Shown: positions 1 to 64,000, counted from the stretch's first letter. The stretch is 64,000 nucleotides of DNA from Actinomycetota bacterium (GCA_046713235.1 JBKKBZ010000116.1:2742-66741), one strand, 5' to 3'. The notes: generated by a model from the sequence alone, not told the origin. Numbers and translations: made by a program.

Positions 1-1304
1 TACCGGTCGATCTCGAACGGCGAGACGTACGCCCTGTATGCGTCCCACTCCGCGCGCTTGTTGCGTATGAAGTACTCGAAGACGTGGTCGCCGAGCGCCT
101 CGCGGACGAGCTCACTTTTCTCCATCGCCGCGATGGCTTCGTAGAGATCCTCGGGCATGGACTCAATGCCGGCGGCGCGCCGCTCGGCCTCGCTCATCTC
201 GTAGATGTTGGCCGATGCCGGCGGAGGCAGCTGCTCGTTGCCGGCGATCCCGCGCAGCCCGGCCGTGAGCATCACGGCGAAGGCGAGATAGGGATTGCAA
301 GCGGGGTCCGGGGAGCGAAACTCCACCCGGAGATCACGTCCCGGCGTCGAAGGGATGCGCAGGAGCGCGGAGCGGTTTTGCTTCGCCCAGCAGATGTGCA
401 CCGGCGCCTCATAGCCGGGAACCAGGCGCTTGTAGGAGTTCACCCACTGATTACAAACGGCGGCGGTCTCTCGGGCGTGTCCGAGGATGCCCGCGATGAA
501 CGCCCGGCCGATCTTCGAGATTCTGTCGGGATCCTCGCCGTCGTAGAAGGCGTTGCGCTCGCCTTCGTATAGCGCCATGTGGGTGTGCATGCCGCTTCCC
601 CAAGCTCCCTGAATGGGTTTCGGCATGAACGTCGCGTACACCCCGGCCTCTTGGGCAACTTCCTTCACGGCCAGCCGCGACGTCATGACGTTGTCGGCCA
701 TCGTGAGCGCGTCGGTGTCACGCAGCACGATCTCGTGCTGCGACGGGGCGACCTCGTGATGGACGCTTTCGACGGAGATTCCCATCGCCTCCAGGTAGAA
801 GACCGTGCGCTTGCGCAGATCGGAGGCCACGTCCAGCGGCGTCAAGTCGAAGTACCCGCCGTGGTCGAGCGGCTCGGTGCTGGAGGCGCTTGGAAAGTAG
901 AAGTACTCGAGCTCCGGCCCGACGTAGAACGTGAAGCCCATCTCGCCGGCCTTAGCGAGCGCTGCGCGGAGCACGCGGCGTGGGTCGCCCGGGAACGCAT
1001 CGCCGTCGGGCGTCAGCACGTCGCAAAACATGCGAGCCACGCCTTGTGCTTCCGGTCGCCACGGCAGGATCTGAAAGGTCGCGGGGTCGGGCTTGGCGAG
1101 CATGTCGGATTCCTGCACGCGTGCGAACCCCTCGATGGCCGACCCGTCGAAGCCCATGCCCTCGTCGAACGCCACCTCCAGCTCTGCGGGTGTAATGGCG
1201 AACGATTTCAGATACCCAAGGACGTCGGTGAACCACAGCCGGATGAATCGAATGTCTCGCTCTTCTACGGTCCTGAGCACATACTCTGTATCGCGCGCGC
1301 TCAC
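1..1304 (-). CDS. glnA: Glutamine synthetase type I (GlnA), C-terminus truncated at window edge
   Basis: Minus-strand frame (not in ORF track because the stop lies outside the window) translates to ...KRAEWDAYRAYVSPFEIDRY at the 3' end, with internal GS motifs (NPYLAFA, EGFARVQESDMLAKPDP) and a GTG start at 1304. About 434 aa lie in the window. Confidence 0.85.
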   Translation of the reverse strand, partial: MSARDTEYVLRTVEERDIRFIRLWFTDVLGYLKSFAITPAELEVAFDEGMGFDGSAIEGFARVQESDMLAKPDPATFQILPWRPEAQGVARMFCDVLTPDGDAFPGDPRRVLRAALAKAGEMGFTFYVGPELEYFYFPSASSTEPLDHGGYFDLTPLDVASDLRKRTVFYLEAMGISVESVHHEVAPSQHEIVLRDTDALTMADNVMTSRLAVKEVAQEAGVYATFMPKPIQGAWGSGMHTHMALYEGERNAFYDGEDPDRISKIGRAFIAGILGHARETAAVCNQWVNSYKRLVPGYEAPVHICWAKQNRSALLRIPSTPGRDLRVEFRSPDPACNPYLAFAVMLTAGLRGIAGNEQLPPPASANIYEMSEAERRAAGIESMPEDLYEAIAAMEKSELVREALGDHVFEYFIRNKRAEWDAYRAYVSPFEIDR

Positions 1305-1959
1305 GCATGCCTCCGCGGCTCAAGCTTGTATCCGACGTTGCGAATCGTTCCGATGATGGATTCGTGCTCCGCGCCCAACTTAGCCCGCAAGCGCCGGACG
1401 TGCACGTCCACCGTTCTGGTGCCTCCGAAATAGTCGTACCCCCACACCTCTTGCAGGAGCTGGCTGCGCGAGAACACTCGGCCCGGCCGCTGGGCTAGGA
1501 AGCGAAGGAGCTCGAACTCCTTGTAGGTCAGGTCGAGCGGCCGTCCTCGAAGCCGCACCTGATAGGTGTCGGGGTCGATCGACAGCTCGCCGATGCGCAC
1601 CACACCCGGCGAATCGACGAGATGACTTCCGATCAGCAAGCGAACCCGTGCAAGGGTCTCGGCGGGCGTGGCCCCCTCAACGAGGAACGCATCAATTTCC
1701 CAGTCGGGCGCGAGCGTGTCCACCGCTTCTGCGGCCACCGTCACAAGCAGCCGGAGGCGAGGCGCCTGGAATCGGAGCGAACGGCATGCTTCCCGTCCGC
1801 GCGCGATGTCCTTCACCGCATCGACGACGCAGATGTCGGGAGTCGGCCCCGAGCCCAACTGGGCGCCCAGCGCCGTGTAAGCGACGCGATGTCCGGCCGA
1901 CTCGAAGATCGCTCCGAGCTGCTCGTCGTCGCGATCCGAATGGATCAGAATGTCTGCCA
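1301..1959 (-). CDS. OmpR/PhoB-family orphan response regulator, GlnR-like
   Basis: Receiver domain (ICVVDAVKD) plus winged-helix domain (LTYKEFELLRFL...TVDVHVRRLRAKL...IRNVGYKL). Chosen start is GTG at 1959 (VADILIHSD). Its stop overlaps the glnA GTG start (GTGA at 1301-1304). Confidence 0.6.
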
Positions 1960-2168
1960 CGTCGCGCCTCCGCGAAGGCCTCGAAAAGCGAAGAAACCCC
2001 AGGCGACCGGCTTCCTTGCCTGAGGTTCTAGACGCCGGTTGCGCTTCCCGGCGCCTGCCGAGCAAAGTAGCAGAGCCAGTCGCGTCTCACAAGGAGGATT
2101 CGCCTGCTCCCACCGACGAAGCGAGGTCGTGCCGCCCGGCGATTTTCGGCCGGGCATGAGGACTTCTT

Positions 2169-2984
2169 GTGCCGATGAACGACGGCGCGGAAGGACGCGG
2201 ACGCCATCTCTTTGTTGCCGGCGTGCTGGCGGTCGCCGCTTTGATCGGATTGCTGGCCGGCAAGGCCGCCCTCGCCGTCGTGACCGCGGGGGCAGCGATC
2301 CTCGGTGCGCGTGAGGTCTTCGACCGGCAGCGCCTTCGCGGGCTGCGCCCTGTTCCGCTTGTCGGCGTCGGTGCCATAGTTGGTCTTTTCGGGATTGCGC
2401 TGGCCACGGGAGAGGACGCACCACGTGTCTTCCCCTTCGTAGTTGCCTCGGCGACGGTCGCGTGTTTCGGAGCGATCATGTTGCGTAAGCGAATTGCCGG
2501 CGCGACCGAATCGATCGTGACGACGCTGCTGCTCGTCGTCGTGCTTGGAATGCTGGGAGCATACGTGGTCGTGGTGCGCGGTCTGCCGCTGGGTGTGCGA
2601 TTCGCGGCGGGGCTCCTGTCGATGGTGGCGGCGACCCAAGGCGGGAGTGCTGCCTATGCCGCATGGCGCCGCCGACGCGCCGGAAGTCATGCTCTGGCCC
2701 GCCCCGCGTGGGAGACGCGGGTTGCAGGTGCCGTAGGGTGCTTCGCCGTAGCTATGGTCGACGTCGTCGTTTTCGCGCCGGCCTTTGATCGCGGTAGGGC
2801 GCTGTTTCTCGCGGCAATCGTCATCATCTTCGTGCCACTCGGCGAGCTGTGGGTTTGGATGTTCCGGCAAGACCTCGCCGCCGAGGGTGAGCCGCTTCCA
2901 GAATTCCCCATCCTTGCGCGCGTTGCACCGGTGCTAACGGCCGCGGCCCCGTTCTTCTACGCGGTTCGAGCCCTGATCCGCTAG
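2169..2984 (+). CDS. Polytopic membrane protein, unknown function
   Basis: 271-aa ORF with multiple hydrophobic segments. Divergent from the glnR-like gene. Confidence 0.5.
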   Translation: MPMNDGAEGRGRHLFVAGVLAVAALIGLLAGKAALAVVTAGAAILGAREVFDRQRLRGLRPVPLVGVGAIVGLFGIALATGEDAPRVFPFVVASATVACFGAIMLRKRIAGATESIVTTLLLVVVLGMLGAYVVVVRGLPLGVRFAAGLLSMVAATQGGSAAYAAWRRRRAGSHALARPAWETRVAGAVGCFAVAMVDVVVFAPAFDRGRALFLAAIVIIFVPLGELWVWMFRQDLAAEGEPLPEFPILARVAPVLTAAAPFFYAVRALIR

Positions 2985-5034: not shown

Positions 5035-5088
5035 TCCTGCTTAGCCTAGCCCCGAACGTCCCGTCAATGATTCGGTAATAGTTGGGGT

Positions 5089-5649
5089 TCAGACGGGAGA
5101 GGACGCCGGGCTGATCATCAGCTTGCCGTGGAACTCGAGGGGCTCCATCGGGTCGATGACTTCGGAGATTGCGGCGGTCGTCACGATCTTCTGAATTCCC
5201 TTGGAGAAGCGATTGCGGTAGGTGCGAGACGTGCACCCAGCCGAGACTCCGACCGGGTTGTGCGGGGCCGGCGGCATAACAAGCTCGAGGGGACCGACGC
5301 CGTCTTCAGGCGCAAGGCCGGTGAGATACTGGCAGGTCGCCCCGAAGATCAAGCGCCCGAGCGGGTCGAACCACGAGACCGAAACGTACCCTCCTGGGAT
5401 GACCGGCATGGCGACGTGGAAGTTCGCGTGGGACTCGACGAGAGATACGTACCCCGCCCGCGTGAGGGTGAACTGCCCAACGCAATCGCCGTACCAGCCT
5501 CCATCGCCGGTCGGCGTGGTCATCCCGGAGCACTCGCCCGGAACGGCTCCCGTCGCCAGAAGCTCGTGCACGGTGGCCCGGCCCGAACCGGGGACGGCCG
5601 TCCCCAGGGCAAGCGCAAGCATGAGTATGAAAAGTCTCGATCGGCCCAT
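5089..5649 (-). CDS. Secreted hypothetical protein (signal peptide, 4 Cys)
   Basis: N-terminal signal peptide MGRSRLFILMLALALGTAVPGSG. No recognisable domain. Confidence 0.45.
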   Translation of the reverse strand: MGRSRLFILMLALALGTAVPGSGRATVHELLATGAVPGECSGMTTPTGDGGWYGDCVGQFTLTRAGYVSLVESHANFHVAMPVIPGGYVSVSWFDPLGRLIFGATCQYLTGLAPEDGVGPLELVMPPAPHNPVGVSAGCTSRTYRNRFSKGIQKIVTTAAISEVIDPMEPLEFHGKLMISPASSPV

Positions 5650-7252: not shown

Positions 7253-7329
<77 letters not shown>

Positions 7330-7727: not shown

Positions 7728-9164
7728 CTATCCCTTGACGACCGCCAGAGGGCGCAGGCGCGCCACTCTCCTCGATAACTTCGCCCCCTCGCAGGTCTCC
7801 ACCACCGCGGACACATCCTTATACGCGGCCGGCGCCTCCTCCGCCAGCAGGCCCCATTGTGTCGCATTCACCAGCACACCGGCCGCAGCGAGGTCGGCCG
7901 CGAGCTGTCGGCCGCTGACCTGCTTCTTGGCTTGCGTGCGGCTCATCATTCGGCCGGCGCCGTGGCAGGTGGAGGAAAACGCCCGAGCGCCCTCGGCGAC
8001 ACCGGCCAGCACGTAAGAGGCCGTGCCCATCGAGCCCGGGATGAGCACCGGCTGTCCGGCCTCACGAAACGCATCTGCCAGCTCCGGGTGGCCGGGGCCG
8101 AACGCCCGCGTGGCGCCCTTGCGGTGAACGCAGAGAAGCCGCTCGCGCCCATCCACGTCGTGCCGTTCCAGCTTGGCAAGGTTATGCGAGACGTCGTACA
8201 CGAGCCGAAGGCCGAGATCCTCGGCACTCCGGCCGAAAACGGTCTCGAAGCACCGGCGAACCTCGTGTGCCAGAAGGTGCCTGTTCGCCCGGGCGAAATT
8301 CGCCGCCGCGGACATCGCCGACAGATACCGCTCACCTTCCGGCGTTCCCACCGGGGCACACGCGAGCTGCCGATCCGGGACGGTGATCTTGTATGCGGCC
8401 ATCGCCCGGTCGAACTTACGGACCTCGTCGGTGCAGACTTGGTGGCCGAGTCCTCGGGATCCGCAGTGCATCATCACCGTGATCGTCCCGGGCTCGAGGT
8501 CGAAGGCCGCAGCGGCGCGCTCGTCGAAGATTTCCTCGATCGCCTGGATCTCGAGGAAATGATTGCCGGCACCGAGCGATCCGAGCTGCGTCGCGCCGCG
8601 CTCGCGTGCCCGATCGCTTACCGCGTCGGGATCCGCTTCGAGGCGGCCCCCGTCCTCGCACCGCTCCACGTCCGAGGGCCAGCCGACACCGCGCTCGAGC
8701 AGCGCAACCACTCCGTCGGTGAGCACGTCCCGCATCTGGGCACCGTCGAGCTTCATGAGACCGTCGCGGCCCGTCCCCCGGGGTATGCGGCGCGCCAGCT
8801 CGTCGATCAGACGCTGCATCGCCGGCGCTGCTTCGGCGAGCAAGAGGTCGCTTCGCAACAGTCGCACACCGCAACAGATGTCGAATCCGACGCCCCCCGG
8901 TGTGACGACGCCGCCATTCTCGACGTCGGTCGCCGCAACCCCGCCGACGGGGAAGCCATAGCCCCAATGCACGTCGGGCATCGCGAACGAAGCGCGAACG
9001 ATGCCGGGAAGCATCGCCACGTTGGCCACCTGATCGAGGGCTCGATCCTCTTTCGCCTTTACCAATAACCCCTCGCTGGCAAAGACGTGGCCCGGCACGA
9101 CCATACCCGCCCGGGCGCCCACCGGGATCTGCCATTCGTACGGTCCGAGGCGGAGCAGGTCCAT
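7728..9164 (-). CDS. rtcB: RNA-splicing ligase RtcB
   Basis: Motifs DVHWGYGFPVGG, NHFLEIQ and C-terminal STCHGAGRMMSR. Start taken at the second Met (9164); an upstream ATG at 9203 would overlap archease by 31 nt. Confidence 0.85.
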   Translation of the reverse strand: MDLLRLGPYEWQIPVGARAGMVVPGHVFASEGLLVKAKEDRALDQVANVAMLPGIVRASFAMPDVHWGYGFPVGGVAATDVENGGVVTPGGVGFDICCGVRLLRSDLLLAEAAPAMQRLIDELARRIPRGTGRDGLMKLDGAQMRDVLTDGVVALLERGVGWPSDVERCEDGGRLEADPDAVSDRARERGATQLGSLGAGNHFLEIQAIEEIFDERAAAAFDLEPGTITVMMHCGSRGLGHQVCTDEVRKFDRAMAAYKITVPDRQLACAPVGTPEGERYLSAMSAAANFARANRHLLAHEVRRCFETVFGRSAEDLGLRLVYDVSHNLAKLERHDVDGRERLLCVHRKGATRAFGPGHPELADAFREAGQPVLIPGSMGTASYVLAGVAEGARAFSSTCHGAGRMMSRTQAKKQVSGRQLAADLAAAGVLVNATQWGLLAEEAPAAYKDVSAVVETCEGAKLSRRVARLRPLAVVKG

Positions 9165-9172
9165 CGGGGCCT

Positions 9173-9577
9173 CTACACGTCGACGTAGACCCGAGCCATC
9201 CATTCGGACCTAGTCTTGGACACGGTCAAGCCGTGATAAGTGACCGCCTTGATCATGGGGCCGGCCGGCTCGGAGTCGATAACCACATAGACGTCCCCCT
9301 CCGCACGAGTCGGCGACACCTGCCGGAGGTCGGCGCCTACCACAAGCTCGCCTCGGGTCTCGAAGCGGTACAGGCACTCCTCCAGGAACTGGACGAGGGT
9401 GTCCTCAAGGTCGGACCCCTCGACCAGGATCGCCCGGGCGTCGTCGGAATCGTCGGGCTCGTCGTCGAGGATGATCGCCGCAAGGGCGCGAGCCGCGTCG
9501 GCGAACAGGACGGGAAGCTCGGGCGCACGCACCTCGATTCCCACGTCCGCCGTGTGGGGGATGATCTCGTACGGCAT
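9173..9577 (-). CDS. Archease (RtcB activator)
   Basis: MPYEIIPHTADVGIEV... N-terminal archease signature, 134 aa, immediately upstream of rtcB. Confidence 0.75.
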   Translation of the reverse strand: MPYEIIPHTADVGIEVRAPELPVLFADAARALAAIILDDEPDDSDDARAILVEGSDLEDTLVQFLEECLYRFETRGELVVGADLRQVSPTRAEGDVYVVIDSEPAGPMIKAVTYHGLTVSKTRSEWMARVYVDV

Positions 9578-9581
9578 CCTG

Positions 9582-12032
9582 CTACTCCGCCTCTACCTCC
9601 GCGATCACCGGGGCCATCGCCGAGATCTGCTGATCCTTGTCGAGGCGCATAACCCGGACCCCCTGAGTGTCCCGCCCCATCCGGGAGATGTCCTTGCAGG
9701 CCATTCGGATCACTACCCCGCTGGAAGAGATGAGGAAGACCTCGTGACCGGGCCGGACGACCATGGCGCCGCGGATCTGGCCGCGACGGGAGGTCAACCG
9801 CGCAGTCTTGACACCCTTACCTCCTCGCCGCTGGCGCGGATAGTGGGTCAGCATCGTGCGCTTGCCGAAGCCGGACTCGGTGACGATGAGTAGCTCCCCA
9901 TTCGGGTCCACGACGTCGAAGGCGACCAATTCGTCGTTGCCTCCAACCCGCATCCCGATGACCCCGGTTGCGGTGCGACCCATCGGCCGGACGTCGTTCT
10001 CGTCGAACGTGATCGAATAGCCGCCTCTCGAGACCATGATGAGCTCGTCCTCGCCCGTCGTCGCGCGAACCTGAACGACTTCGTCGTCTGCGCGCAGGTT
10101 GACGGCGATGATGCCGTCGCGGCGCGAAGAGTCGTACGCCGAGAACAGGGTCTTCTTGATCACGCCGCGTTTCGTCGCGATGACGAGATACTTACGCGTC
10201 GCGTAGTCGCGGGTATCGATCACCGCGGCGATCGACTCGTCCCCGGCCAGAGGAAGCAGGTTGCGCAGGCTGATCCCGCGTGCGGTGCGGTCCTTCTCAG
10301 GGATCTCGTGCGCCTTGATGCGGTAGACCTTGCCGCGATTCGAGAAGAACAGCACGTAGGAAAGGTTTGTCGTCGTCAGCATCTGGCCGACGATGTCTCC
10401 TTCCTTGGGCTTCGCGCCGCGTATCCCCTTGCCACCCCGTCCTTGGGTCCGGAAGACGTTCGACAGCACGCGTTTGATGTACCCGGACCGCGTGATGGTA
10501 ACGACGACGTCGTCGTCGGCGATCAAATCCTCGACGTCGATATCGCCCTCATCGCTGCCGATCTGGGTGCGGCGCTTGTCGGCGTGGCGGGACCGGATCT
10601 CGCCCAGCTCGTCCTTGATGATGCCGCGAATGCGCATCGGATCGGCGAGGATCGCTTTGTATTCGGCGATCTTCGCCGACAGCTCTGCGTGCTCCTCCTC
10701 GATCTTCTGGCGCTCGAGCGCCGCCAGCCGGCGCAACTGCATGTCCAGGATTGCATTCGCCTGGATCTCGCTCAGACTGAACCGTTCCATCAGGGCGGTC
10801 CGCGCCTGATCCGCGTTCGCCGAGGCGCGGATGAGCGCGATGACGGCATCGAGGTTCTGCAGCGCCACCAGCAGCCCTTCGAGGATGTGCGCACGTTCCT
10901 CGGCCTTGCGCAAGCGGAAGCGCGTCCTGCGCGTGACGACGTCGATCTGATGAGCGATGTACGGTGCCAGCACTTGAGGAAGCGACAGCGTCCGCGGGAC
11001 GCCGTCGACGAGCGCGAGGCAGTTCACGCCGAACGAGTCCTGCAGCTGCGTGTGCTTGTAGAGGTTGTTCAGCACGACTTGTGGAATGGAGTCCCGCTTC
11101 AGCTCGATGACGAGCCGCAGACCCTGCCGGTTCGACTCGTTTTTCAATGCCTTGGCCGTCGCAGGGATGCCGGTTATGACCTTCTTCTCGATCAACTCGG
11201 CGATCTTGGCAAGGACCCGATCGCCGGACACCGTGTACGGCAGCTCGGTGACGATGATGCGCTGCTTGCCCGACGCCGTCTCCTCGATCACGGCTTTGCC
11301 GCGAACCTTGACCGAGCCGCGGCCGGTGGTGAACGCATCCTTGATGCTTTCGCGCCCCATGATGATGCCGCCGGTCGGAAAGTCCGGGCCCTTGACGTAC
11401 TTCATCAGTCCGGCAACGGTGATCTCGGGATCGTCGATCATCGCGATCGTGGCGTCGATGACCTCTCCAAGATTGTGCGGCGGAATGTTCGTCGCCATAC
11501 CGACCGCGATCCCGCTGGATCCGTTCACGAGCAGATTGGGAAACCGCGCCGGCAGCGGCATCGGCTCGACCTCTTCGCCGTCGTAGTTGGGCAGGAAGTC
11601 GACGGTCTCTTCATCGATGTCGCGAAGCAGCTCCATCGCAAGCCAGGTAAGCCGGCATTCGCTGTACCGCATCGCCGCCGGCGGATCGCCGTCGACGGAT
11701 CCGAAGTTTCCATGCCCCTGGATCAGCGGTGCGCGCATCGAGAAGTCCTGCGCCATCCGAACCAGCGCATCGTAGATCGCTGTGTCGCCGTGGGGATGGT
11801 ACCGACCCATCACGTCACCGACCACGCGGGCCGACTTCTTAAATGGGCGGTCCGGCCGGATGCCCTGCTCGTTCATGCCGTAGAGAATCCGTCGGTGTAC
11901 CGGCTTCAAACCGTCGCGCACATCGGGCAGCGCGCGTCCGACGATGACCGACATCGCGTAGTCGAGGTAGGAACGCTTGACCTCCTCTTCGATATCGATC
12001 GGTTCGATGTTGGGCTCGAGCGGAAGTGTCAT
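9582..12032 (-). CDS. gyrA: DNA gyrase subunit A
   Basis: [27 protein letters not shown] and the rest of the 816-aa length are GyrA-like. Confidence 0.97.
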
Positions 12033-12036
12033 CGGC

Positions 12037-13953
12037 TCAGATGTCCACGAACGCGTCCTTCGCGTTCCGCTGGATGAACTCCCGGCGAGACTCCACGTCC
12101 TCGCCCATGAGCACGGTGAAGATCTGGTCGGCCACGGCGGCGTCGTCGAGCGTCACCTGGAGGAGCCGCCGTGTCTCCGGGTTCATCGTGGTATCCCACA
12201 GCTCTTCCGCGTTCATCTCGCCGAGACCCTTGAACCTCTGGATCGGAACCTTCTTGTTCGCCGGCGCCCCGGCGAGCACCTCGTCGCGCTGCCGGTCGCT
12301 GAAGGCGTAGCGCTTCTTTCCCTCGATCACGAGCCGGTAGAGCGGCGGCTGCGCGACGTAGACGTGTCCGGTTTCGACCAGCAAACGCATGTGCCGGAAG
12401 AAAAAGGTCAGCAGAAGCGTGCGGATGTGTGCGCCGTCGACATCGGCGTCGGTGAGGATCACGACCTTCCCGTAGCGCAGCTTCGACACGTCCGACTCCT
12501 CCCCGATGCCTGCCCCGATCGCGGAGATGAGTGCGAGGATCTCGTTGTTCTCCAGGACCTTGTGGAGACGGGCCTTCTCAACGTTGAGGATCTTTCCTCG
12601 GATGGGAAGGATCGCCTGAGTCTCCCGGTTTCGGGCCTGCTTGGCGCTCCCGCCCGCCGAGTCTCCCTCGACAATGAAGACCTCGCACGCATCGGGGTCG
12701 TTCGATGAGCAGTCGGCGAGCTTGCCGGGCAGACCCCCAGCATCGAACGCACTCTTCCGCGCGATGTCGCGCGCCTTCTTTGCGGCGAGCCGGGCGCGGG
12801 CGGCCTGCGTGGCCTTCGCGACCACGCGGCGTCCTTCGGTCGGATGCTCCTCGAACCACTCCGCCAGCCGCGCGTTCAGCGTCCGCTCGACGAACGCGCG
12901 GATCTCGGTGTTGCCGAGCTTGGTCTTGGTCTGTCCCTCGAATTGCGGCTCTCGAAGCTTTATCGACACGATCGCAACGAGGCCCTCACGAATGTCCTCG
13001 CCTTGAAGGTTCTCTTCCTTTTCCTTCAGCAGACCCTTGGCCCGGGCGTAGCGGTTCACGACGTTCGTGAGCGACTTCTTGAAGCCCTCCTCGTGCATTC
13101 CACCTTCGTGGGTGTTGATCGTGTTCGCGAAGGTGTAGATGGAGTCGTTGAAGCCGGCGTTCCACTGGAGCGCCATCTCGATCTCGCGCTCCTCCTCGGC
13201 GGCCTCGAAATAGATGATCTTGTTGAGGGTCTCGCGGCCGGCGCTCAGCGCCTTCACCATGTCTGCGATGCCGCCGGTGAAGCGATAGGTCTGCTCGTTC
13301 TTCGGGTGGGTTCGCTCGTCGGTGAGGGTGATCGACACACCCTTGGTCAGGTAGGCGAGCTCCTTGAGCCGTTGCTGAAGCACGTCGAACTTGAACTCGA
13401 GGTCCTCGAAGACCTGCGGATCGGGCCAGAAGTCGACCGTGGTCCCCGACTTCTGCGATGGTTTACCGCGCTCGAGCTTGGAGGTCGCCTTCCCTCTCGC
13501 GTAGCTTTGCTTCCAGGTGAAACCCTCGCGGTGGACCGTGACCTCGAGGCGCTCGGAGAGGGCGTTCACCACGGAGACACCCACCCCGTGGAGACCTCCG
13601 GAGACCGCATAACCCTTGCCGTCGAACTTTCCGCCGGCATGGAGCACCGTGAGCACAACCTCGAGCGCCGGACGCTTGTCCTTGCGGCCGGGGATCGGCT
13701 GGACGGGGATCCCTGCGCCGTTGTCGGTCACGCGGACTCCCCCGTCGGCCATGAGGACGGCGTCGATCTTGTCGCACCGGCCGGCCAGCGCTTCGTCGAT
13801 CGCGTTGTCGACAACCTCGTAGACCAGGTGATGGAGTCCCCGCGGACCGGTGGAGCCGATGTACATTCCGGGCCTGCGGCGAACCGCTTCGAGCCCCTCC
13901 AGAACCTGGATTTCGCTCGACGTGTAGCTCGTAACCGGCTTGGCCAAGCTCAA
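12037..13953 (-). CDS. gyrB: DNA gyrase subunit B
   Basis: GHKL ATPase and TOPRIM motifs ([26 protein letters not shown]), 638 aa. Confidence 0.97.
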
Positions 13954-14130
13954 CTCCTCCAGGGCGTGCCGAAGCCCCGGGGAAGGGGCTCGGGGGGCCG
14001 GATCGGGCGACCGTTTCGAAGACCAATTCTAGCACGTCAGAGGCCTTTTTCGGCACCTCGGAGGCGCCGGTTTCGCCTCCTTCGGAGCATGTCCGACGAG
14101 CCGGACCTCACCTCCGCGGCCGGCTCCCCC

Positions 14131-14475
14131 TCATTCCTGTCTGGCCCGGCCTACGACGGCCCGCACCCGAGTCACCGATCCGGGCGGTAAGACGCCCGCG
14201 ACCCGCTCCAGCAAGGTTGCAGAAAGCAGCGTGAGCTCGGTGGCCCACGTGGGATTCTCGGCGCGAACGAAGAGCTCGCCGTCGACGAGCTTCACCGGTT
14301 CGCATCGGGCCGCGACGGTGGCCCCTACGATCTCCGCCCACCGCGCGGCAAGCTTGCCCAGAGCAAGCCGCTCCGACCAGCCGGGCCGATGACTGAGGTC
14401 CTCAATCAGCTCACCGAGACGCCGCGGGTCCTTGCGCCGCGGGTCCGTGTTGCCGTCATCACGCCGCATCGACAC
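14131..14475 (-). CDS. dciA: DUF721/DciA-like protein (helicase-loader family, Rv0004-like)
   Basis: 114 aa. Lies between recF and gyrB as in Mycobacterium. The DUF721 call rests on gene order and family sequence pattern; no specific motif was identified. Confidence 0.6.
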   Translation of the reverse strand: MSMRRDDGNTDPRRKDPRRLGELIEDLSHRPGWSERLALGKLAARWAEIVGATVAARCEPVKLVDGELFVRAENPTWATELTLLSATLLERVAGVLPPGSVTRVRAVVGRARQE

Positions 14476-15562
14476 GTCCCTCGCCGACGTGGAAGACCTT
14501 GGCTTCGAGCGAATCGGGAACCGCCCCCGGATCGGCCGCCGTGATGATGGCTTGCGCTCCGTCGGGCAGGGCGGCGGCCACTCGCTCGCGCCGCGCCGGG
14601 TCGAGCGGCTCGAGGGCGTCGTCGAGAAGCAGGACCGGCTCGTCCCCGCCCGTCGCTTCCCTCACCGAACTCCACGCCGCGAGCGCGAGCGCGAGCGTCA
14701 CCACCCACGCCTCTCCCTGCGACGCATGGGTCCGTGCCGGCAGGCCGTCGATCCCGAAAGCGACGTCGTCGCGATGAGGCCCCACCAGCGTCATCGCGCG
14801 GATGATCTCGTCCGATCGGCGCTCCTCAATGCGCGCGAGCATCGCCGCTGCCCAAGCTGCTGCGTCTGTTCCCACCCCGGGATGAGGAATGTTCGGACGA
14901 TAGGCGATCTCGAGCAGCCCGCGTCCCGCCACCGCCGCCCAGGCCGCGGCGGCGTGCGGCGCCAGCGCGCGGATGGCGGCTTCGCGCCTCGCCGAGATCT
15001 CTCCGCCGGAGGCCGAGAGCTGCGCGTCCCAGACCTCGATCCCGTCGGGCCTGCGCCCGGCCGACTCCCGTAGCAACGCGTTGCGCTGTCTAAGCGCGCG
15101 TTCGTAATCGCGGAGCACCCCGGCCAGCCGCGGCGTCACTTGCACGAGGATCTCATCGAGGAAGCGCCGGCGCTCGAGCGGATCTCCCCGAACGACCTCG
15201 ACCCGCTCCGGCGCAAAGAGACATGCACGAAGCACGCCGAGAACCTCGCGCTTGCGCCGAAGCGGCTCCCCGTCTAGCCGAACCCGGGACGCCCCCTGAG
15301 AACGGATCTCTACCTCGACCACCTGCTGCCTCACGTCGCGCTGCGTGTGAGCCCGAACGACGGCGCTCACACGGGACCGCTGGATGAGCGCCGGATCGGG
15401 GGCCCGGTGCGAGCCGAGAGTCGCGGCGTACCACGCTGCCTCAACGATTGAGGTTTTACCCGACGCGTTCGGTCCGACCAGTGCCACGCGTCCGGACGGG
15501 ATCGCGAGATCGAGTCCTTCCCAGCACCGGAACCCGTTCAGCTCGAGACGAGCGAGCCGCAC
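14459..15562 (-). CDS. recF: DNA replication/repair protein RecF
   Basis: Walker A GPNASGKTS and an SMC-like N-terminus (LELNGFRCWEGLDL). Confidence 0.9.
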   Translation of the reverse strand: MRLARLELNGFRCWEGLDLAIPSGRVALVGPNASGKTSIVEAAWYAATLGSHRAPDPALIQRSRVSAVVRAHTQRDVRQQVVEVEIRSQGASRVRLDGEPLRRKREVLGVLRACLFAPERVEVVRGDPLERRRFLDEILVQVTPRLAGVLRDYERALRQRNALLRESAGRRPDGIEVWDAQLSASGGEISARREAAIRALAPHAAAAWAAVAGRGLLEIAYRPNIPHPGVGTDAAAWAAAMLARIEERRSDEIIRAMTLVGPHRDDVAFGIDGLPARTHASQGEAWVVTLALALAAWSSVREATGGDEPVLLLDDALEPLDPARRERVAAALPDGAQAIITAADPGAVPDSLEAKVFHVGEGRVDAA

Positions 15563-15570
15563 CCCGCCCT

Positions 15571-16662
15571 CTAGGAAAGGCGTACCGGCATCAGTAGGTA
15601 CTGGAAACCGTCGTCCTGCGCGCCACGTAGCAGCGCCGGCTTTAGGCCGTCGCGCACCGACAAGATCAGCTCTGGTCCCTCGACCGCAGCGATCCCGTCG
15701 CTGAGATACCCCGGGTTGAACGCCACGGTCAGCGCTTCTCCCTCGAAAGTCGCGGCCACGTGCTCCGAAGCCTCTCCAAGATCTTGCGTCCCCGACGTCA
15801 GGCGCACACCTTCGGGCGAGAGATCGAGACGGACGGGCGCACCCTGCTGCGCGAGAATACCGACGCGCCTCACCGACTCGGCGAATGCTTCGCGCTCGAG
15901 ACGAAGGACATTGGGCTGGGCGTCTGGAACCAGTTGCCTCCAGTTCGGAAACTCACCCTCGATCAGACGAGTGGTGAGCCTGCGGGTGCCGGCCTCGACC
16001 CCGGCCTGCGTCGTCCCGAGCGCCAGTCGTACCTCGCTTTCATTGTCGGCGGCGCGCGCCGCTTCGCTCAAGGCGCGCCCCGGCACGACCCGGCGGAGCT
16101 CCTCGTCCGGCCCCGACCACGTGAGTGATCGCACGGCAAGCCGGTAGCTGTCGGTCGCCACCAAGGTAAGGGCGGAAGGACCGGCCTCCAGCAGGACGCC
16201 GGTCAAGATCGGCCGAGCTTCGTCGCGCGAAGCCGCCCGAGCCACCTGACTCACCGCGGAGAGGAAGAGCTTGGCGTCCAGTACACCGGTGTGGCCTTGG
16301 TCGGGAGCGCCGAGCGCAGGGAAATCGTCTGCAGGAAGGACGCGGAGCGTGAACTCCGCGGCACCTCCGACTATGCGAGCTTGAGACGCGTCGGTTTCGA
16401 GGAGAACTCCTCCTTCGGGAAGAGCGCGCACGATCTCGCCGAGCAGACGCCCCGGAAGCACGGCCCGGCCCGGCTGCTCTACCTGCCCCTCGATCTCCGC
16501 CCGGCCGGCGACCTCAAGGTCCGTGCCGGCGAACACGACTTTTCCTTCCCCTGCCTCGATGAGAACCCCGCCGAGCACCGGGAGCGTCGCCTTGCTTCCG
16601 ACCGATCGAAGAACCCATAAAACGACGTCGGCGATCTGGTCACGCTCGATCCGGATCTTCAC
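15571..16662 (-). CDS. dnaN: DNA polymerase III beta sliding clamp
   Basis: 363 aa with the three-domain clamp pattern. Sits downstream of dnaA. Confidence 0.9.
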   Translation of the reverse strand: MKIRIERDQIADVVLWVLRSVGSKATLPVLGGVLIEAGEGKVVFAGTDLEVAGRAEIEGQVEQPGRAVLPGRLLGEIVRALPEGGVLLETDASQARIVGGAAEFTLRVLPADDFPALGAPDQGHTGVLDAKLFLSAVSQVARAASRDEARPILTGVLLEAGPSALTLVATDSYRLAVRSLTWSGPDEELRRVVPGRALSEAARAADNESEVRLALGTTQAGVEAGTRRLTTRLIEGEFPNWRQLVPDAQPNVLRLEREAFAESVRRVGILAQQGAPVRLDLSPEGVRLTSGTQDLGEASEHVAATFEGEALTVAFNPGYLSDGIAAVEGPELILSVRDGLKPALLRGAQDDGFQYLLMPVRLS

Positions 16663-16848
16663 GGTTTCACACCTCCAGGGAGAATCGTACTTCGCGGCTG
16701 TGACAGAACCTTATCCACCCGATCTGTATCCAGGCTTTTAAAGGAATAATTCTGTAGTAACAGTCGTAGGGGCTGGGGACGCTGTGGAGAATGCCACGCC
16801 TTTGGGGAATTCGGCCGTCCCCCGCTGTGCACGGTGTCGTGGATGACA
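16663..16848. promoter_or_regulatory. Candidate oriC (dnaA-dnaN intergenic region)
   Basis: DnaA-box-like 9-mers: TTATCCACC (16711-19), TGTGGAGAA which is the reverse complement of TTCTCCACA (about 16784-92), and TCGTGGATGACA (about 16837-48). An AT-rich stretch (cttttaaaggaataattctgtagtaacag, about 16735-16765) stands out against the high-GC background. Confidence 0.6.
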
Positions 16849-18225
16849 TCAGGCCGATTCCACCTGCTGCGCGGTTCTTCTTCGGATTCTCGCCGTCAAC
16901 TCTTGGACCTGTGAATAGATTTGGCGGTGCTCGCCCATCAGCTTTCGGATCTTGCCATCGGCGTGCAAAACCGTGGTGTGGTCTCGTCCGCCGAAGATCT
17001 CGCCTAGCTTCGGAAGGGACAGCGGGGTCAGCTCCCGGCACAGGTACATGGCCACCTGCCGGGCCAGTACGATCGGGCGCTGGCGCGACGGACCCAGGAG
17101 ATCGCCGCGCGAGATGCCGAAGAACGAAACGCATTCCGCGATAACGACGTCGGGCCGGATCTCGCTGGCGCCCTCGGGAGCCAGCAGCGGGTTGAGAGCC
17201 TCTCGTGCCAGCTCCAGCGTCAGCGGCAGTCTCGACAGGGAGGACCACGATACGACCCGGATGAGCCGGCCCTCGAGCTCACGGATGTTGTTTTGCACGC
17301 GAGTCCCGATGAACTCGAGGACGTCATCGGGAACCTCGAAGCCTTCCGCCCGGGCCTTATTGTGGAGAATCGCCACCCGGGTTTCGAGATCAGGGGGCTG
17401 AACATCGGTGATAAGACCCCATTCGAAGCGGGTGCGCAGGCGATCCTCCAGCGAGGCGATGGCGCTCGGTGGCCGGTCGGAAGAGATGACTATCTGCCGG
17501 CCGTCGTTGTAGAGGGCGTTGAAGGTATGAAAGAACTCCTCTTGGGTGCGCTCACCGGTTGCCAGGAACTGGATATCGTCTACGAGCAGCACGTCGGTCT
17601 CGCGGTAACGCCGGCGGAACGCCGGCATCTTCTCCTCCCGCACGCCGCTGATGAACTCGTTCATGAATTGCTCGCTCGACACGTACCGCACGACCGCGGT
17701 CGGGTAGAGCGAACGGACGCAGTGTCCAATCGCGTGAAGCAAGTGGGTCTTTCCTAGACCGGCTCCCCCATAGATGAAGAGCGGGTTGTACGACCGGGCC
17801 GGTTGCTCGGCGACCGCCAGTGCCGCCGCGTGGGCGAACCGGTTCGAGGGACCGATCACGAACGTGTCGAAGCTGTATTTCGGAATGAGCTGCGAAGCTT
17901 CGGCGGCCGCGCGCAGTGGTGCCGGTACCGGGTCGGCCGGAGCGTCGAGGTCGAACACCTCCGGGGGCGCCGGCCGTGCGTCGACCGTGACCGATAGAGA
18001 AAGCGGCCTCTCCGCGGCAGCCTGCAGAGCCTCCGTGACTAGGCCTGCGTATCTTGTCTCCAGCCACTCCTTGGCGAACGCACTCGGGACTCCGAGGACG
18101 ATTTCGTCCCCGGAGAGGCTGAGCGGCCGGCTTCCTTCGATCCAGGTCTTGGCGCCGGGTGAGGGCAAGCGGTCACGCAGCGTCGCAAGGGTCCTCTGCC
18201 AAATTACGTCAAGTTCGTCGCCCAC
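16849..18225 (-). CDS. dnaA: Chromosomal replication initiator DnaA
   Basis: AAA+ Walker [12 protein letters not shown] and a domain IV HTH. Start chosen as GTG at 18225, preceded by AGGGAGG. The in-frame ATG at 18399 would add a non-DnaA-like N-terminus. Confidence 0.88.
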
Positions 18226-18234
18226 GGGCCTCCC

Positions 18235-18266
18235 TGGTCCACAATGGTTATCCACGGTTGTGCAAA
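18235..18266. promoter_or_regulatory. DnaA-box cluster upstream of dnaA
   Basis: TGGTCCACA (18235-43), TTATCCACG (18248-56) and TTGTGCAAA directly upstream of the dnaA start. A further TTTCCACAG lies at 18384-92. Confidence 0.5.
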
Positions 18267-18501
18267 ACCCTGGGGAAGGATTCACGCGTAGACAAACAGC
18301 AACTTCGCGAGGCCGAGGGAAGGAAGGGCTTGCCCAGTCGCCGACGCTCATCGGCGGACGAGCGGGCGCGAAGATACCATCGGTTTCCACAGACCTCAAG
18401 AGCGGGAAAGCGCCTCACTTTTGCCCCTCTCTAACGGTGACGAGAGGCGCCGATCGGCACGGTTGCGCCCCCACAGGCCGACCCGTAGACTGCGGACTTC
18501 G

Positions 18502-18636
18502 ATGAAGCGCACCTATCAGCCACACGTTCGGCGGCGGAAGCGCACGCACGGGTTCCGTGCACGTATGAAGACGCGCGCCGGCCGCGCCGTGCTTGCTCGC
18601 CGCCGGCGCAAGGGTCGCGCCGAGCTGACCGTGTGA
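18502..18636 (+). CDS. rpmH: 50S ribosomal protein L34
   Basis: [42 protein letters not shown]. Confidence 0.9.
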
Positions 18637-18995
18637 CCCGGGCTCCCCGCCCGACCATGAAGCGAGCGAACCGCCTCAGGGCGCCCAGCGAGTTCGCGCA
18701 TGTCTACAGCACCGGACGACGCATTCAAGGCGACGGCGTTGCTGCCACCATCGCTTTCTCCCAGGAGCGGGCGCCCCGCGTGGCCGTCACTTGCGCGCGG
18801 CGGTTCGGGACCGGCGTGGCCCGCAACCGGGCAAAGCGACGTCTGCGCGCCGCTATCGCCCCGCTGATCCCGCGCCTGCGGCCGGGATCCGAGACCATTC
18901 TTCAGGCAACCCCTGCGGTGCTCTCCATGAGTTTCCAGGTACTGCACTGGGAGATCATGGAAGTCCTTCGAAAGGGCCAGGTCCTGGATGCTTAG
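18633..18995 (+). CDS. rnpA: RNase P protein component
   Basis: [21 protein letters not shown]...[11 protein letters not shown]. Overlaps the rpmH stop by 4 nt. Confidence 0.8.
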
Positions 18996-19221
18996 GGCCC
19001 TCGCCATCGGGGTTCTCCGGCTCTACCAGGTAACCGCCGGGCGGGTGACCGCCGGGCACTGCCGGTTCCATCCCACGTGCTCGGAGTACGCCCTTCAGGC
19101 GGTGCGATCAGGTGGAGTCGTCCGCGGCATTTTCCTGGCCTCGTGGCGGATCCTTCGTTGCGGGCCGTGGAACCGGGGCGGCGTCGACTACCCGCCGCAT
19201 TCGGCGCGGTCCCATGGCTGA
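18988..19221 (+). CDS. yidD: Membrane protein insertion efficiency factor YidD
   Basis: LYQVTAGRVTAGHCRFHPTCSEYALQAV signature. Confidence 0.8.
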   Translation: MLRALAIGVLRLYQVTAGRVTAGHCRFHPTCSEYALQAVRSGGVVRGIFLASWRILRCGPWNRGGVDYPPHSARSHG

Positions 19222-20359
19222 GCTCTGGGGAGCAATCTTAGGAGGCTTCGGCTTCGCCCTCGATGCCATCTTCCGGGTCGTTCCTTCATACGGCGTAGCG
19301 ATCATCCTGCTCACGCTGGTCGCCCGGGCGCTCATCGCCCCCTTGGGCGTGAAGCAGATCAAGAGCATGCAGCAGATGCAGAAGTTGCAGCCGGAGGTAA
19401 AGAAGCTCCAGCAAAAGCACAAGGGCGACCGTCAGAAGATGAACGAAGAGCTAATGAAGCTCTACCGGGAGCACGGGGCAAACCCGCTCGGCGGCTGCTT
19501 TCCCCTCATCGCGCAGTTCCCCGTTTTCATCGCGCTCTATGCGGTGATTCGCGCCGTGGTGCCTTTCCAGGCCGCTACCGAGTCGCCGATTGCCCAGCTC
19601 CCCAAGGCGACCATCTGCACGCCGGCCGGCGCGACCGGGGACCCGCTCGTTCCCTCGGTCGGCGGTGAGGCGCCGGCTGCGGTCAGCTGCGACATCAAGG
19701 ACGGGACCGAGAGCTTCAAGATCAAACAGTGGAGCACCAGGGTAGGTACTGCGGTCGCCCAGCCGCCCTCCTATCTGGCCCGCTGCAACGTACAGGGCAC
19801 GGACGCCTTCGTTTGCGCCTCGCCACTCGGGACGGGTCACCTACCCAAGGACGGGAAGCTGTTCCGACAGCTGGTCGAGGGCAAGGGGCAGTTCCTCGGC
19901 ATGCATTTGGCTTGCTCGCCTAACCAGGCGGGAAGCAGCAACGGCATCCGCCAATGCACCTCCAGCGCCAAAAAGGCCGCCGGCCCGGCCCTGATCATGT
20001 ACTACCTGCTGGTCCTGGCGATGGCCGGGACGACGTTCTTCCAGCAGCGCCAAATGATGAAGAAGGCTCCTCCTCAGCAGGCGCAGCAGATGAAGGTGAT
20101 GGGCGTCATGATGCCCGTCGTTCTCGGGTTTTTCTCTCTCCAGTTTCCGGCTGCCCTGTCCGTCTACTGGATCACCGGAAACATCTGGACGATCGTCCAG
20201 CAGAAGGTGATCATGGACAGGCAGGAGGCCGCTCAGGCTGCCCAGCCCGCTCCGAAGCCCGAGCCGGGTAAGAAGCCCGGGGGCAACAGCAAGAGGCCCG
20301 GGGGCAACAGCAAGAAGCCCGGCGAGAAGGGAAAAGGGCCGACCAAAGGTAAGGGGTAG
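19214..20359 (+). CDS. yidC: Membrane protein insertase YidC
   Basis: Start at MAELWGAILGG overlapping the yidD stop. Conserved YidC TM core, an about 120-aa Cys-containing loop insert, and a Lys/Gly-rich C-terminal tail. Confidence 0.85.
   Translation: MAELWGAILGGFGFALDAIFRVVPSYGVAIILLTLVARALIAPLGVKQIKSMQQMQKLQPEVKKLQQKHKGDRQKMNEELMKLYREHGANPLGGCFPLIAQFPVFIALYAVIRAVVPFQAATESPIAQLPKATICTPAGATGDPLVPSVGGEAPAAVSCDIKDGTESFKIKQWSTRVGTAVAQPPSYLARCNVQGTDAFVCASPLGTGHLPKDGKLFRQLVEGKGQFLGMHLACSPNQAGSSNGIRQCTSSAKKAAGPALIMYYLLVLAMAGTTFFQQRQMMKKAPPQQAQQMKVMGVMMPVVLGFFSLQFPAALSVYWITGNIWTIVQQKVIMDRQEAAQAAQPAPKPEPGKKPGGNSKRPGGNSKKPGEKGKGPTKGKG
20273..20322 (+). repeat. 21-nt tandem repeat in the yidC tail (GGNSKRP/GGNSKKP)
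   Basis: agcccgggggcaacagcaaga occurs twice in tandem, then a partial third unit. Confidence 0.7.
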
Positions 20360-21082
20360 GTGCGAGAGGCGGTCGAGACCGAGGGGCGTACGGTCGAGGA
20401 AGCCATCGACGCGGCGCTGGATCTCCTCGGAGCGACCGATGACGAGGTCGAGATCAAGGTCCTCGCCGAGGGAGGCACCTGGCGGGGCAATGAGATCGCG
20501 CCGGCGCGAGTCCGGGTCGGTTTTCGCGATGAGCTCAGTCCCCAGGAGCGAGCCGAGCGAGAAGAGCGCGTGCGGGAGGAGCCTCTAGATCCGGCGCTCG
20601 GGGAAGAGATCCGCCGACAGGCCGAGGTTTGCCGTGATTTCCTGGTGGGGCTGCTCGAAAAGATGGATATCGAGGCCGAAGTTACCGCGTCGACCGGCCG
20701 GGACGGGGTGGAGTTGGAGATCGAGGCAGACGGGGACGACGGGGCGCTGCTCATAGGCCGGCACGGCCTGACCCTCGATGCGCTCCAGCTGCTTACGCGG
20801 GCTCAATCCTCACGCAGCGGTGGGCCTCGATTGCCGATATCCCTCGAGATCGCCGGATATCGAGCGCGCAGGAGGGCTTCTCTGCACCATCAGGCCGGGC
20901 GCGCTGCGGAGCGCGCCCGTCGGACGGGACGTAGCATTGCCTTGGCCCCCATGACCCCTCTTGAGCGCAAGGTCGTCCACGAGGCGATTGCCGAGCTCGG
21001 GGGCGTGCGATCCCGCAGCGAAGGGGAAGCCCTCGATCGACATGTGGTGATCGAGTGGGACCAATCGCATTCCAACGGTTAG
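20360..21082 (+). CDS. Jag/KhpB-like RNA-binding protein (Jag_N, KH, R3H)
   Basis: GTG start. C-terminal R3H motif PMTPLERKVVHEAIAELGGVRSRSEG. Position after yidC is conserved. Confidence 0.75.
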   Translation: MREAVETEGRTVEEAIDAALDLLGATDDEVEIKVLAEGGTWRGNEIAPARVRVGFRDELSPQERAEREERVREEPLDPALGEEIRRQAEVCRDFLVGLLEKMDIEAEVTASTGRDGVELEIEADGDDGALLIGRHGLTLDALQLLTRAQSSRSGGPRLPISLEIAGYRARRRASLHHQAGRAAERARRTGRSIALAPMTPLERKVVHEAIAELGGVRSRSEGEALDRHVVIEWDQSHSNG

Positions 21083-21096
21083 TTTCACGGGAAACA
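21081..21096. promoter_or_regulatory. parS-like site (AGTTTCACGGGAAACA)
   Basis: 14 of 16 match to the TGTTTCACGTGAAACA consensus. Sits at the jag/rsmG junction, where origin-proximal parS sites typically lie. Confidence 0.4.
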
Positions 21097-21704: not shown

Positions 21705-21748
21705 TCCAGTTTTTGCCAGATAGTAAAGCCTACAAACCAGGATAACCG

Positions 21749-63943: not shown

Positions 63944-64000
63944 CTGCTTCTGGGCGGCGGTTTGTGGCTGCCGCGTGACGGTTTGGTCCGGGCCATGTTC

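Follow-up and report, generated by a model that had tools for sequence, protein, structure and literature searches.

The central regulator of nitrogen in actinobacteria, among them the antibiotic-producing Streptomyces and Mycobacterium tuberculosis, is GlnR, and the manner in which this protein senses nitrogen status is debated. It is an "orphan" regulator of the OmpR/PhoB family, with an atypical receiver domain and without a partner kinase, and in Streptomyces and Mycobacterium it controls GlnA1, a glutamine synthetase (GS) of the GSI-beta subtype, at a distance. In Bacillus subtilis, the glnRA operon joins a MerR-family GlnR to a GSI-alpha GS, and a protein contact between GS and regulator controls Bacillus GlnR. 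In Streptomyces coelicolor, glnRII presumably adjoins glnII without overlapping it, GlnRII presumably being a GlnR paralogue and the GS there the eukaryote-like GSII. The locus described here lies at the left edge of a 64,000-nt stretch of DNA from an Actinomycetota bacterium (GCA_046713235.1 JBKKBZ010000116.1:2742-66741), referred to below as the window. In it, glnR heads an operon whose second gene, glnA, encodes a GSI-alpha enzyme. The pair appears to be preceded by a promoter and a two-hairpin leader RNA in place of GlnR boxes, and this account of the operon, taken as a whole, is considered probable. The parts (GlnR, GSI-alpha GS and terminator-type leaders) are known; the combination, as far as is known, is new, and no characterised actinomycete glnR locus has this arrangement. 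The features of the two genes are as follows:

1301..1960, (-): glnR, 219 amino acids, a GlnR-type regulator of the OmpR/PhoB family; N-domain atypical and receiver-like, C-domain a winged helix
1967..1971, (-): GGAGG, the Shine-Dalgarno sequence of glnR, 6 nt ahead of the GTG at 1960, as read from the sequence
1301..1304, (-): GTGA overlap, in which the GTG start of glnA shares two bases with the TGA stop of glnR
1310..1314, (-): GGAGG, the Shine-Dalgarno sequence of glnA, within the last codons of glnR and 5 nt ahead of the GTG
1..1304, (-): glnA, a type I-alpha glutamine synthetase with its GTG start at 1304..1302; the last ~5-10 codons lie beyond the left edge of the window

The glnR reading frame extends from a GTG start at 1960..1958 to a TGA stop at 1303..1301; the longest possible frame, from 2065, uses a start that is unused in any homologue. 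A preliminary description of this DNA had located the gene correctly but ended it at 1959, one base short of 1960. The N-domain of the encoded protein matches PF21695 (GlnR_1st) with 61.2 bits against a gathering score of 27, the winged-helix domain (residues 139-213) matches PF00486 (Trans_reg_C) with 101 bits, and both Pfam domains are present in all of the 120 homologues listed. The best matches in the Protein Data Bank (PDB) are 8hih (201.5 bits) and 8hig (196 bits), compared with 95 bits for MtrA (2gwr), 93.5 bits for RegX3 (2oqr) and 61.5 bits for PhoP (3r0j). The two best-matching entries represent GlnR of M. tuberculosis (transcription activation complex) and Saccharopolyspora erythraea (PMC10235972). 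The protein falls far under the cut-off of every NCBIfam equivalog model for a named response regulator (MtrA, PhoB and others), and along its entire length it shares 49-52% identity with GlnR of Streptomyces and Spirillospora. Based on these structural, domain and identity comparisons, the regulator is therefore a GlnR, as had been proposed, and does not cluster with PhoP or MtrA.

In agreement with this assignment, the protein shares with actinobacterial GlnR (S. coelicolor SCO4159, M. tuberculosis Rv0818 and S. erythraea; 8HIH, 8HIG and 8HML) the two-domain architecture, the recognition segment, the receiver Asp and the lack of an adjacent kinase gene. The DNA-recognition segment, GGTRTVDVH-RRLRAKLG, is invariant in 15 aligned proteins except for one V/I change in one relative. 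The Asp of VVDAVKD aligns with that of VDAR in GlnR of M. tuberculosis and S. erythraea; in one relative, P0115, this residue is replaced by Asn. No histidine kinase gene is present among the window neighbours of glnR (CdsA-like, LmeA, MFS and EamA genes), and no kinase domain was detected within 3-8 kb at 12 related loci, although a kinase could be encoded elsewhere in the genome. The window protein differs from its Streptomyces counterparts in length (219 versus ~266 amino acids), in lacking the C-terminal extension and in having VDAVK where Actinomycetes proteins have VDARR. Together with the lack of any GlnR-specific model in NCBIfam, these differences could indicate a GlnRII-like paralogue, or a generic OmpR-family protein recruited to a position beside a GS gene. 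Given the identity over the full length and the score above cut-off for a GlnR-specific N-domain, this possibility is regarded as highly improbable. Moreover, glnR in the relatives is mostly divergent from an alpha/beta-hydrolase gene, a homologue of the gene divergent from Streptomyces glnR (38% identity, E = 8e-43), and this common neighbour reinforces orthology with true glnR; the upstream box, hairpin and tail described below are likewise common to bona fide glnR loci. The regulator is, on this evidence, an orthologue of the actinobacterial nitrogen master regulator GlnR. In the window itself, the divergent hydrolase gene has been lost.

The glnA reading frame is open to base 1, with 434 codons visible. 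The product contains Gln-synt_N (PF03951, 103 bits) and Gln-synt_C (PF00120, 406 bits) domains and exceeds, with 477 bits, the 429-bit cut-off of the NCBIfam GlnA equivalog TIGR00653, which bears out the earlier claim that the regulator is coupled to a genuine GS; it remains under the cut-offs of the NCBIfam models for gamma-glutamylputrescine synthetase and GS type III. Short chains of ~445 amino acids align with it over the full length (residues 6-434): 8s59/8tfb with 500 bits, 8ool, the GS of Methanothermococcus, with 437 bits, and 4lnf with 425 bits. The long chains of 468-486 amino acids (2gls, 1f1h, 1hto and 2bvc) reach ~230-243 bits, and only over residues ~145-432. We take the short set to be GSI-alpha, the Bacillus/archaeal type, and the long set to be GSI-beta, the type of enterobacteria and of mycobacterial GlnA1. 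The GS orthologues of the relatives have 437-443 amino acids. As judged from these alignments, the window enzyme is GSI-alpha, the short type, and not GSI-beta GlnA1. The locus therefore resembles B. subtilis glnRA in its regulator-then-GS order, its GSI-alpha subtype (4lnf, the B. subtilis GS, being matched over the full length) and its one-transcript logic, but the regulator is MerR-type there and an OmpR/PhoB-type winged helix here, and the resemblance is one of operon logic only. Operators of the form TGTNA-N7-TNACA were not noticed, no search aimed at them having been made. With glnRII of S. coelicolor, which is mentioned in PMC2691820, it shares the linkage of a GlnR-family regulator to a GS gene; it differs in that a GlnR orthologue and a GSI-alpha enzyme are encoded here in overlapping cistrons.

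The related group was sampled at 15 other distinct loci (L001, L002, L081, L083, L084, L085, L087-L090, L169-L172 and L174), whose GlnR proteins are 59-74% identical to that of the window. The closest GlnR homologues (59-78% identity) all come from metagenome-assembled genomes or metagenomes and, where a source is named, are labelled "Actinomycetota bacterium", with one labelled Acidobacteria; the host group consists of uncultured Actinomycetota and appears to branch early, outside the cultured Actinomycetes. A metagenome scan with the GlnR protein added only L089 and L090 to the group and returned mostly Actinomycetes-type loci, because the universal QEVWGYDY motif dominated the search patterns. 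In all 15 of the other group loci, a GS gene lies directly downstream of glnR, and its product is 76-89% identical to the window enzyme. When the junctions of eight relatives were read base by base, five showed a 4-bp ATGA/GTGA overlap and three a spacer of 0-3 nt (TAGATG or TGAnnnATG); gene calls place 4-nt glnR/glnA overlaps in L169-L172 and L174, and purine runs resembling a Shine-Dalgarno sequence occur at the equivalent glnA position in most relatives. The coupling of the regulator stop to the glnA GTG start through GTGA, first reported in the preliminary description, is thus seen at 1304..1301 and recurs in relatives, and the overlap is judged not to be a matter of chance.

In contrast, no type I GS gene was found near Actinomycetes-type glnR at any of 78 genome loci (Streptomyces, Actinomadura, Nocardiopsis, Frankiaceae and others; 6 kb of flank each) or at any of 59 metagenome loci that extend 600 nt or more downstream. 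The separation of glnR from glnA in actinomycetes, on which the earlier interest in this locus rested, thereby holds at all 137 Actinomycetes-type loci, where GS is lacking within 2.5-6 kb, whereas here glnR is the first gene of a GS operon. This difference (15/15 versus 0/137) indicates that the operon is a fixed trait of the group that is absent from the sampled cultured Actinomycetes. The overlap of the reading frames, the ribosome-binding site of glnA inside glnR and the group-wide fixation together make it very likely that GlnR and GS are produced from one mRNA, with translation of glnA coupled to termination of glnR.

In an alignment of the glnR upstream regions, one block is far more conserved than its flanks. 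In the window, the corresponding features are:

2064..2092, (-): promoter-like site, with a -35 hexamer TTGTGA at 2092..2087, a 17-nt spacer, TG at 2072..2071, c, and TACTTT at 2069..2064
1982..2063, (-): whole leader, 82 nt; matched by the covariance model R1 with 79.6 bits, the only match in the 64-kb window
2031..2055, (-): hairpin P1, with 5' arm GGCGCCGG at 2055..2048, loop GAAGCGCAA at 2047..2039 and 3' arm CCGGCGUC at 2038..2031
1997..2025, (-): hairpin P2, terminator-like, with 5' arm CCUCAGGC at 2025..2018, a 13-nt loop at 2017..2005 and 3' arm GCCUGGGG at 2004..1997
1982..1996, (-): U-rich tail UUUCUUCGCUUUUCG, directly 3' of P2

The sequence TGCTACTTT is nearly invariant in the relatives and reads as an extended -10 element (TG-n-TAnnnT). 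A TTGnnn hexamer is positioned exactly 17 nt upstream of the -10 box in 14 of 15 loci, the exception being L084 with 18 nt, and the sequence of the spacer is variable. A generic promoter scan leaves the conserved site uncalled, and only 7 of its 12 bases match the consensus. Based on its conservation, the site is predicted to be a sigma-A-type promoter ~100 nt upstream of glnR. Beside the -35 box, on the (+) strand, a stranded sequence resembling a Shine-Dalgarno site, AAGGAGGA (2090-2097), has no usable start codon.

The first hairpin, P1, is located 8-10 nt downstream of the -10 box, and its loop always ends in a conserved YGCAA. Its stems differ entirely among relatives and still pair (for example, GGAGGAAGGC/GCCAUUCUCC in L001, and GGACGGUCGG/GCCGCUGUCC); 6-7 of its 8 pairs have changes on both sides. 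The P2 stem, of 8-10 bp, is GC-rich and carries conserved CAGGCAA and GCC(C)GG motifs in or near its loop. It is recovered by RNAalifold on a plain MAFFT alignment, 91.7-93.9% of its cells pair, and 4-5 of 9 pairs have changes on both sides. The T-rich tail, TTTC-n-G-n-TTTC, is conserved in all 15 leader-bearing loci and also in Actinomycetes loci. On the structure-blind MAFFT alignment, 85.9% of cells are paired in the two-helix structure versus 76.2% after shuffling, a level reached by 0 of 500 shuffles, although the 15 leader sequences are mutually related and this control therefore overstates significance. When the partners were slid along the same alignment, 31-52% of cells paired, and 10 of the 17 true pairs change on both sides. 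In a model-fitted alignment, which leans towards the structure, 91.0% of cells are paired, and both partners vary in 12 of the 17 pairs. The R1 model was built from 12 sequences with three loci held out, and it finds these at the homologous place with 40.5 bits (L001), 33.7 bits (L085) and 32.4 bits (L090; E = 5.5e-8 to 4e-6 for the three).

A related element is present in the Actinomycetes. Weak R1 matches recur at one fixed position upstream of Streptomyces glnR, and iterated nhmmer searches then turned up 118 loci in which glnR is preceded by a homologous block; these come from Streptomyces, Actinacidiphila, Frankiaceae, Actinomadura, Spirillospora, Nonomuraea and numerous metagenomes. This block reads TAT(C/T)CT, 12-14 nt, GGAUCCGGGC...GCCCCCGGGUCC and then UUUUGUGYUUUC. 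It shares with the window leader the upstream box, hairpin and U-tail, and it is simpler, consisting of a -10-like box, one hairpin and a U-tail; the extra 5' hairpin P1 is specific to the window leader in this comparison. In the Actinomycetes hairpin, 94.9% of cells are paired, and changes on both sides are limited to 3 of 9 pairs. C and U alternate opposite G, with 17 CG, 16 UG and 2 UA at one pair, and in Spirillospora (L004, 5838-5975) an insertion of ~75 nt lies inside the loop with the stem kept. A representative Streptomyces locus is arranged as follows:

L054, 5684-5743: Actinomycetes element, with the box ending at -214, the hairpin at ~-205 to -176 and the tail at ~-175 to -163

The 5' ends of S. 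coelicolor glnR have been placed at -200, -170/-168 and -119 (PMC2691820), and the box in L054 is roughly positioned to drive the -200 start, a comparison that is approximate because it crosses species. A glnR start site is absent from the S. coelicolor transcription start site tables in published supplements. The box-hairpin-tail element of the Actinomycetes is not in Rfam, and no mention of it was found in the searched literature. Since the simpler element precedes Actinomycetes glnR, the leader looks like an ancestral feature of glnR, to which GS was joined, or with which it was kept, only in the present group.

The conserved block could also function as DNA, with its inverted repeats serving as an operator through which another transcription factor regulates the divergent promoters. 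At the DNA level, too, P1 and P2 form inverted repeats, the arms of the Actinomycetes hairpin are highly conserved in sequence with little covariation, and binding of PhoP, AfsR and ScbR to the promoter region of Streptomyces glnR has been reported (PMC10704036; PMC2691820). This explanation is considered decidedly unlikely. The arm sequences change fully with pairing kept, as in P1 of L001 and L169. The leader alignment contains 16 G-U and 6 A-C cells, an excess that speaks for folding of the sense strand as RNA, and C and U alternate opposite G in 16 of 35 Actinomycetes rows; a DNA palindrome would lack this asymmetry. P1 loops range over 3-13 nt and P2 loops over 12 to ~40 nt, insertions of 10 to ~40 nt are tolerated (the large ones in the P2 loop occurring in L085, L090 and L089), and loop or spacer lengths run overall from 5 to ~75 nt. 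The two conserved GCAA motifs are spaced 18-26 nt apart, and the U-rich tail is on one side only. The G-U excess, the loop insertions and the variable GCAA spacing argue for RNA structure on the sense strand rather than for a phased protein-binding site. The leader is put forward as a candidate new cis-regulatory RNA with a putative function.

The same features would suit a separate small RNA gene of ~75 nt, comprising P1 and P2 and ending at its own terminator, with glnR-glnA expressed by read-through or from another start. Consistent with such a gene are the strong conserved promoter, the 5' hairpin with an invariant loop motif, the stable terminator-like hairpin and the lack of a visible antiterminator; transferred to L054 numbering, moreover, the first of the three S. 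coelicolor 5' ends (PMC2691820) would immediately precede the hairpin, the second would lie within the U-tail and the third beyond it. Yet the leader always has the same orientation and lies 15-45 nt from the glnR ribosome-binding site, the window offers no room between tail and Shine-Dalgarno sequence for a second promoter with recognisable boxes, and the small RNA in Actinomycetes would be only ~45 nt long. A separate small RNA gene is therefore thought unlikely, and it overlaps with an attenuator model rather than excluding it.

Control by GlnR itself was evaluated at the level of its binding sites. Described forms of the GlnR box include gTnAc-N6-GaAAc, t/gTAAC-N6-Gc/aAAC and GTnAC-N6-GTnAC (PMC10704036; PMC10235972), and a canonical box was defined as an a-site gTnAc, 6 nt and a b-site GaAAc (an 11-nt period), usually in two copies. 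The preliminary description had pointed to GAAAC-type half sites at 1960-2168 as possible GlnR boxes. The string that it gave, cgaaaagcgaagaaac, is indeed located at 1982..1997 on the (+) strand; it is the complement of the T-rich run 3' of the inverted repeat on the coding strand, that is, of the U-rich tail of P2. Within 1960-2168, neither GTNAC-N6-GAAAC with up to 2 mismatches nor the relaxed AC-N6-GNAAC has a match, and a gTnAc a-site is absent. Across the whole window, both patterns occur at or below chance (93 found versus 117.5 expected for the former, 18 versus 20.6 for the latter). No positionally conserved box within 1 mismatch exists across the 15 leader-bearing loci, and the GAAAC pentamers of the relatives are spaced 7-8 nt apart versus the 11-nt period of a-site and b-site. 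A cluster of box-like matches at 63670-63979 (given also as five matches, each with 2 mismatches, at 63499-63943 on the (+) strand) lies within a coding sequence, presumably for a ribosomal protein L9-like product; it was treated as chance.

Direct autoregulation of glnR-glnA by GlnR bound to GAAAC-type half sites in 1960-2168 is accordingly rated very unlikely, somewhat more so than a foreign operator. In its favour, transcriptional self-activation has been reported for mycobacterial glnR (review PMC10704036), GAAAC-like pentamers on the (+) strand at 1982-1997 recur in relatives, and canonical boxes would be bound if present, the recognition helix being the same as in characterised GlnRs. 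Against it, in addition to the failed box matches and the misfitting period, the GAAAC repeats lie downstream of the conserved promoter and on the opposite strand, and a spacing of 18-26 nt between the GCAA motifs misfits the head-to-tail binding of OmpR-family proteins. The direct autoregulatory coupling suggested earlier consequently divides into two parts: co-expression of regulator and enzyme is well supported, whereas action of GlnR on its own promoter is unsupported, since it had been derived from GAAAC half sites that fail as GlnR boxes.

The leader was also compared with known RNA families. At gathering threshold, Rfam 15 identifies nothing but a tRNA in the whole window, and at E values up to 10 no family, including the glnA RNA (RF01739), matches the leader. 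The best hit is the ZMP/ZTP riboswitch (RF01750), which scores 16.1 bits (E = 1.8; gathering score 39) with 30 core positions deleted. This riboswitch has a two-subdomain aptamer with an invariant CCGCCUGGGC pseudoknot strand, whereas the CGCCUGGG stretch of the leader covaries with its partner in relatives, and it was rejected; at the leader of 9 related loci, Rfam finds nothing, ZTP included. An ANTAR target consists of two short stems, each with a hexanucleotide loop in which A1 and G4 are conserved (bioRxiv 10.1101/660928), and the loop lengths of P1 and P2 do not fit this dual hairpin. A leader peptide was discarded, as the window leader contains no AUG or GUG and the indels among relatives are not multiples of three. 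An antiterminator in which the P1 3' arm or GCAACCGG pairs with CCGGUUGC in P2 is attractive in L087, L084 and L089 but is not conserved in the GCAAGC subgroup, and it is not preferred in any fold with the P1 5' arm blocked. The UUUGCC that follows the -10 box could pair with GGCAAA in P2, but its bases probably precede the transcription start. Terminator-based 5' leaders such as the glutamine riboswitch (RF01739) are similar in placing a structured leader, with a GC-rich hairpin and U-tract, before a nitrogen-assimilation operon; the present leader differs in having neither an Rfam match nor a recognisable antiterminator, its only "aptamer" being a simple hairpin. A full-text search of an incomplete library found no literature on an actinobacterial glnR-glnA operon or on an RNA motif before glnR.

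In the proposed sequence of events, transcription would start at the conserved sigma-A-type promoter ~100 nt upstream of glnR, and the first ~80 nt of the transcript would fold into P1, with its invariant GCAA loop, and the GC-rich P2 followed by the U-rich tract. P2 and the tail would then end transcription prematurely, as an intrinsic terminator or attenuator, or would at the least provide a control point at the RNA level, and the output of the operon would be set at the leader, not by GlnR on canonical boxes at its own promoter. No alternative antiterminator pairing was found, which makes a simple ligand-driven strand swap less likely than a protein factor or constitutive partial termination. 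Our best guess is that the leader may terminate part of the transcripts, either constitutively or with the help of a factor, or may act as a stability element, with the invariant GCAA motifs recognised by some partner. A more specific form, in which the box, hairpin and U-tail found before glnR from the present group to Streptomyces constitute an undescribed riboregulator, a factor- or metabolite-dependent attenuator through which nitrogen status controls the synthesis of GlnR, and here also of GS in fixed proportion, is held to be unlikely.

Several observations weigh against this account, in addition to the relatedness of the leader sequences noted above. An internal glnA promoter could conceivably lie within glnR. 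The fold of the single leader sequence is unexceptional for its GC content (z = -1.05). P2 has a 13-nt loop and an interrupted U-tract, with U at 5 of the first 9 positions in the window, and a generic terminator scan leaves it uncalled. With the P1 5' arm barred from pairing, P2 persists in the minimum-energy folds of all 15 sequences, and no switching mechanism can be seen. Finally, L174 (60% identical GlnR; identical to L175) keeps the operon but is without the promoter box and the leader, which is therefore not obligatory. This locus has instead a perfect direct repeat, GAAAC-N6-GAAAC, at -58 of glnR (L174 1950-2023), plausibly a genuine GlnR box. From this single case, GlnR autoregulation may replace the leader in some lineages, and it is also a point in favour of autoregulation in general.

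The window is chromosomal, and the operon is located ~15 kb from dnaA in the neighbourhood of the replication origin: gyrA, gyrB, recF, dnaN and dnaA are on the (-) strand at 9582-18399, and yidC, jag, rsmG, parA and parB are on the (+) strand at 19112-23475, with a gap of ~700 nt at 18400-19111. No other nitrogen genes were found among the 30 window open reading frames scanned. The divergent neighbours of glnR, which are given for context and lie outside the operon, are:

2169..2984, (+): CdsA-like membrane open reading frame, 271 amino acids
2984..3745, (+): LmeA-like open reading frame, 76.8 bits

The CdsA-like frame is 40% identical to the CTP_transf_1 gene of L081, lacks the GHGGxLDRxDS stretch of that orthologue and has no Pfam match, and given these losses it may be decaying. 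Between it and the glnR promoter, a perfect 7-bp hairpin, GCCCGGC-gaaaatc-GCCGGGC, is found at 2131-2155, with a chance-level Rfam match (15 bits). On the other side of the operon, L170 has a c-di-GMP-I riboswitch at 5052-5138 (73 bits against a gathering score of 35) between glnA and a CAP-domain gene; the same CAP gene is downstream of glnA in L081 and L171, and the window ends before that region. Elsewhere in the window, a tRNA gene at 7256-7329 (-) adjoins an RtcB RNA-ligase gene at 7728-9203 (-; 562 bits), and an open reading frame at 57393-58367 (-) combines an AbiEi antitoxin-like N-domain with a REase_MTES_1575-like C-domain, possibly a toxin-antitoxin or abortive-infection module.

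The hard-wiring of glnR to GS represents a different and simpler circuit, one that converges in outline on Bacillus glnRA with an unrelated regulator family. The coupled operon is in effect a natural experiment on the importance of the regulator-to-enzyme ratio. The conserved leader is the more testable lead: because its simpler form is present in cultivable Streptomyces, direct experiments in model strains can address whether it serves as a terminator, as a stabiliser or as the binding site of a factor. If the attenuator reading were true, the leader would provide a sensory input for a regulator that has neither a kinase nor a dependence on phosphorylation of the receiver Asp.

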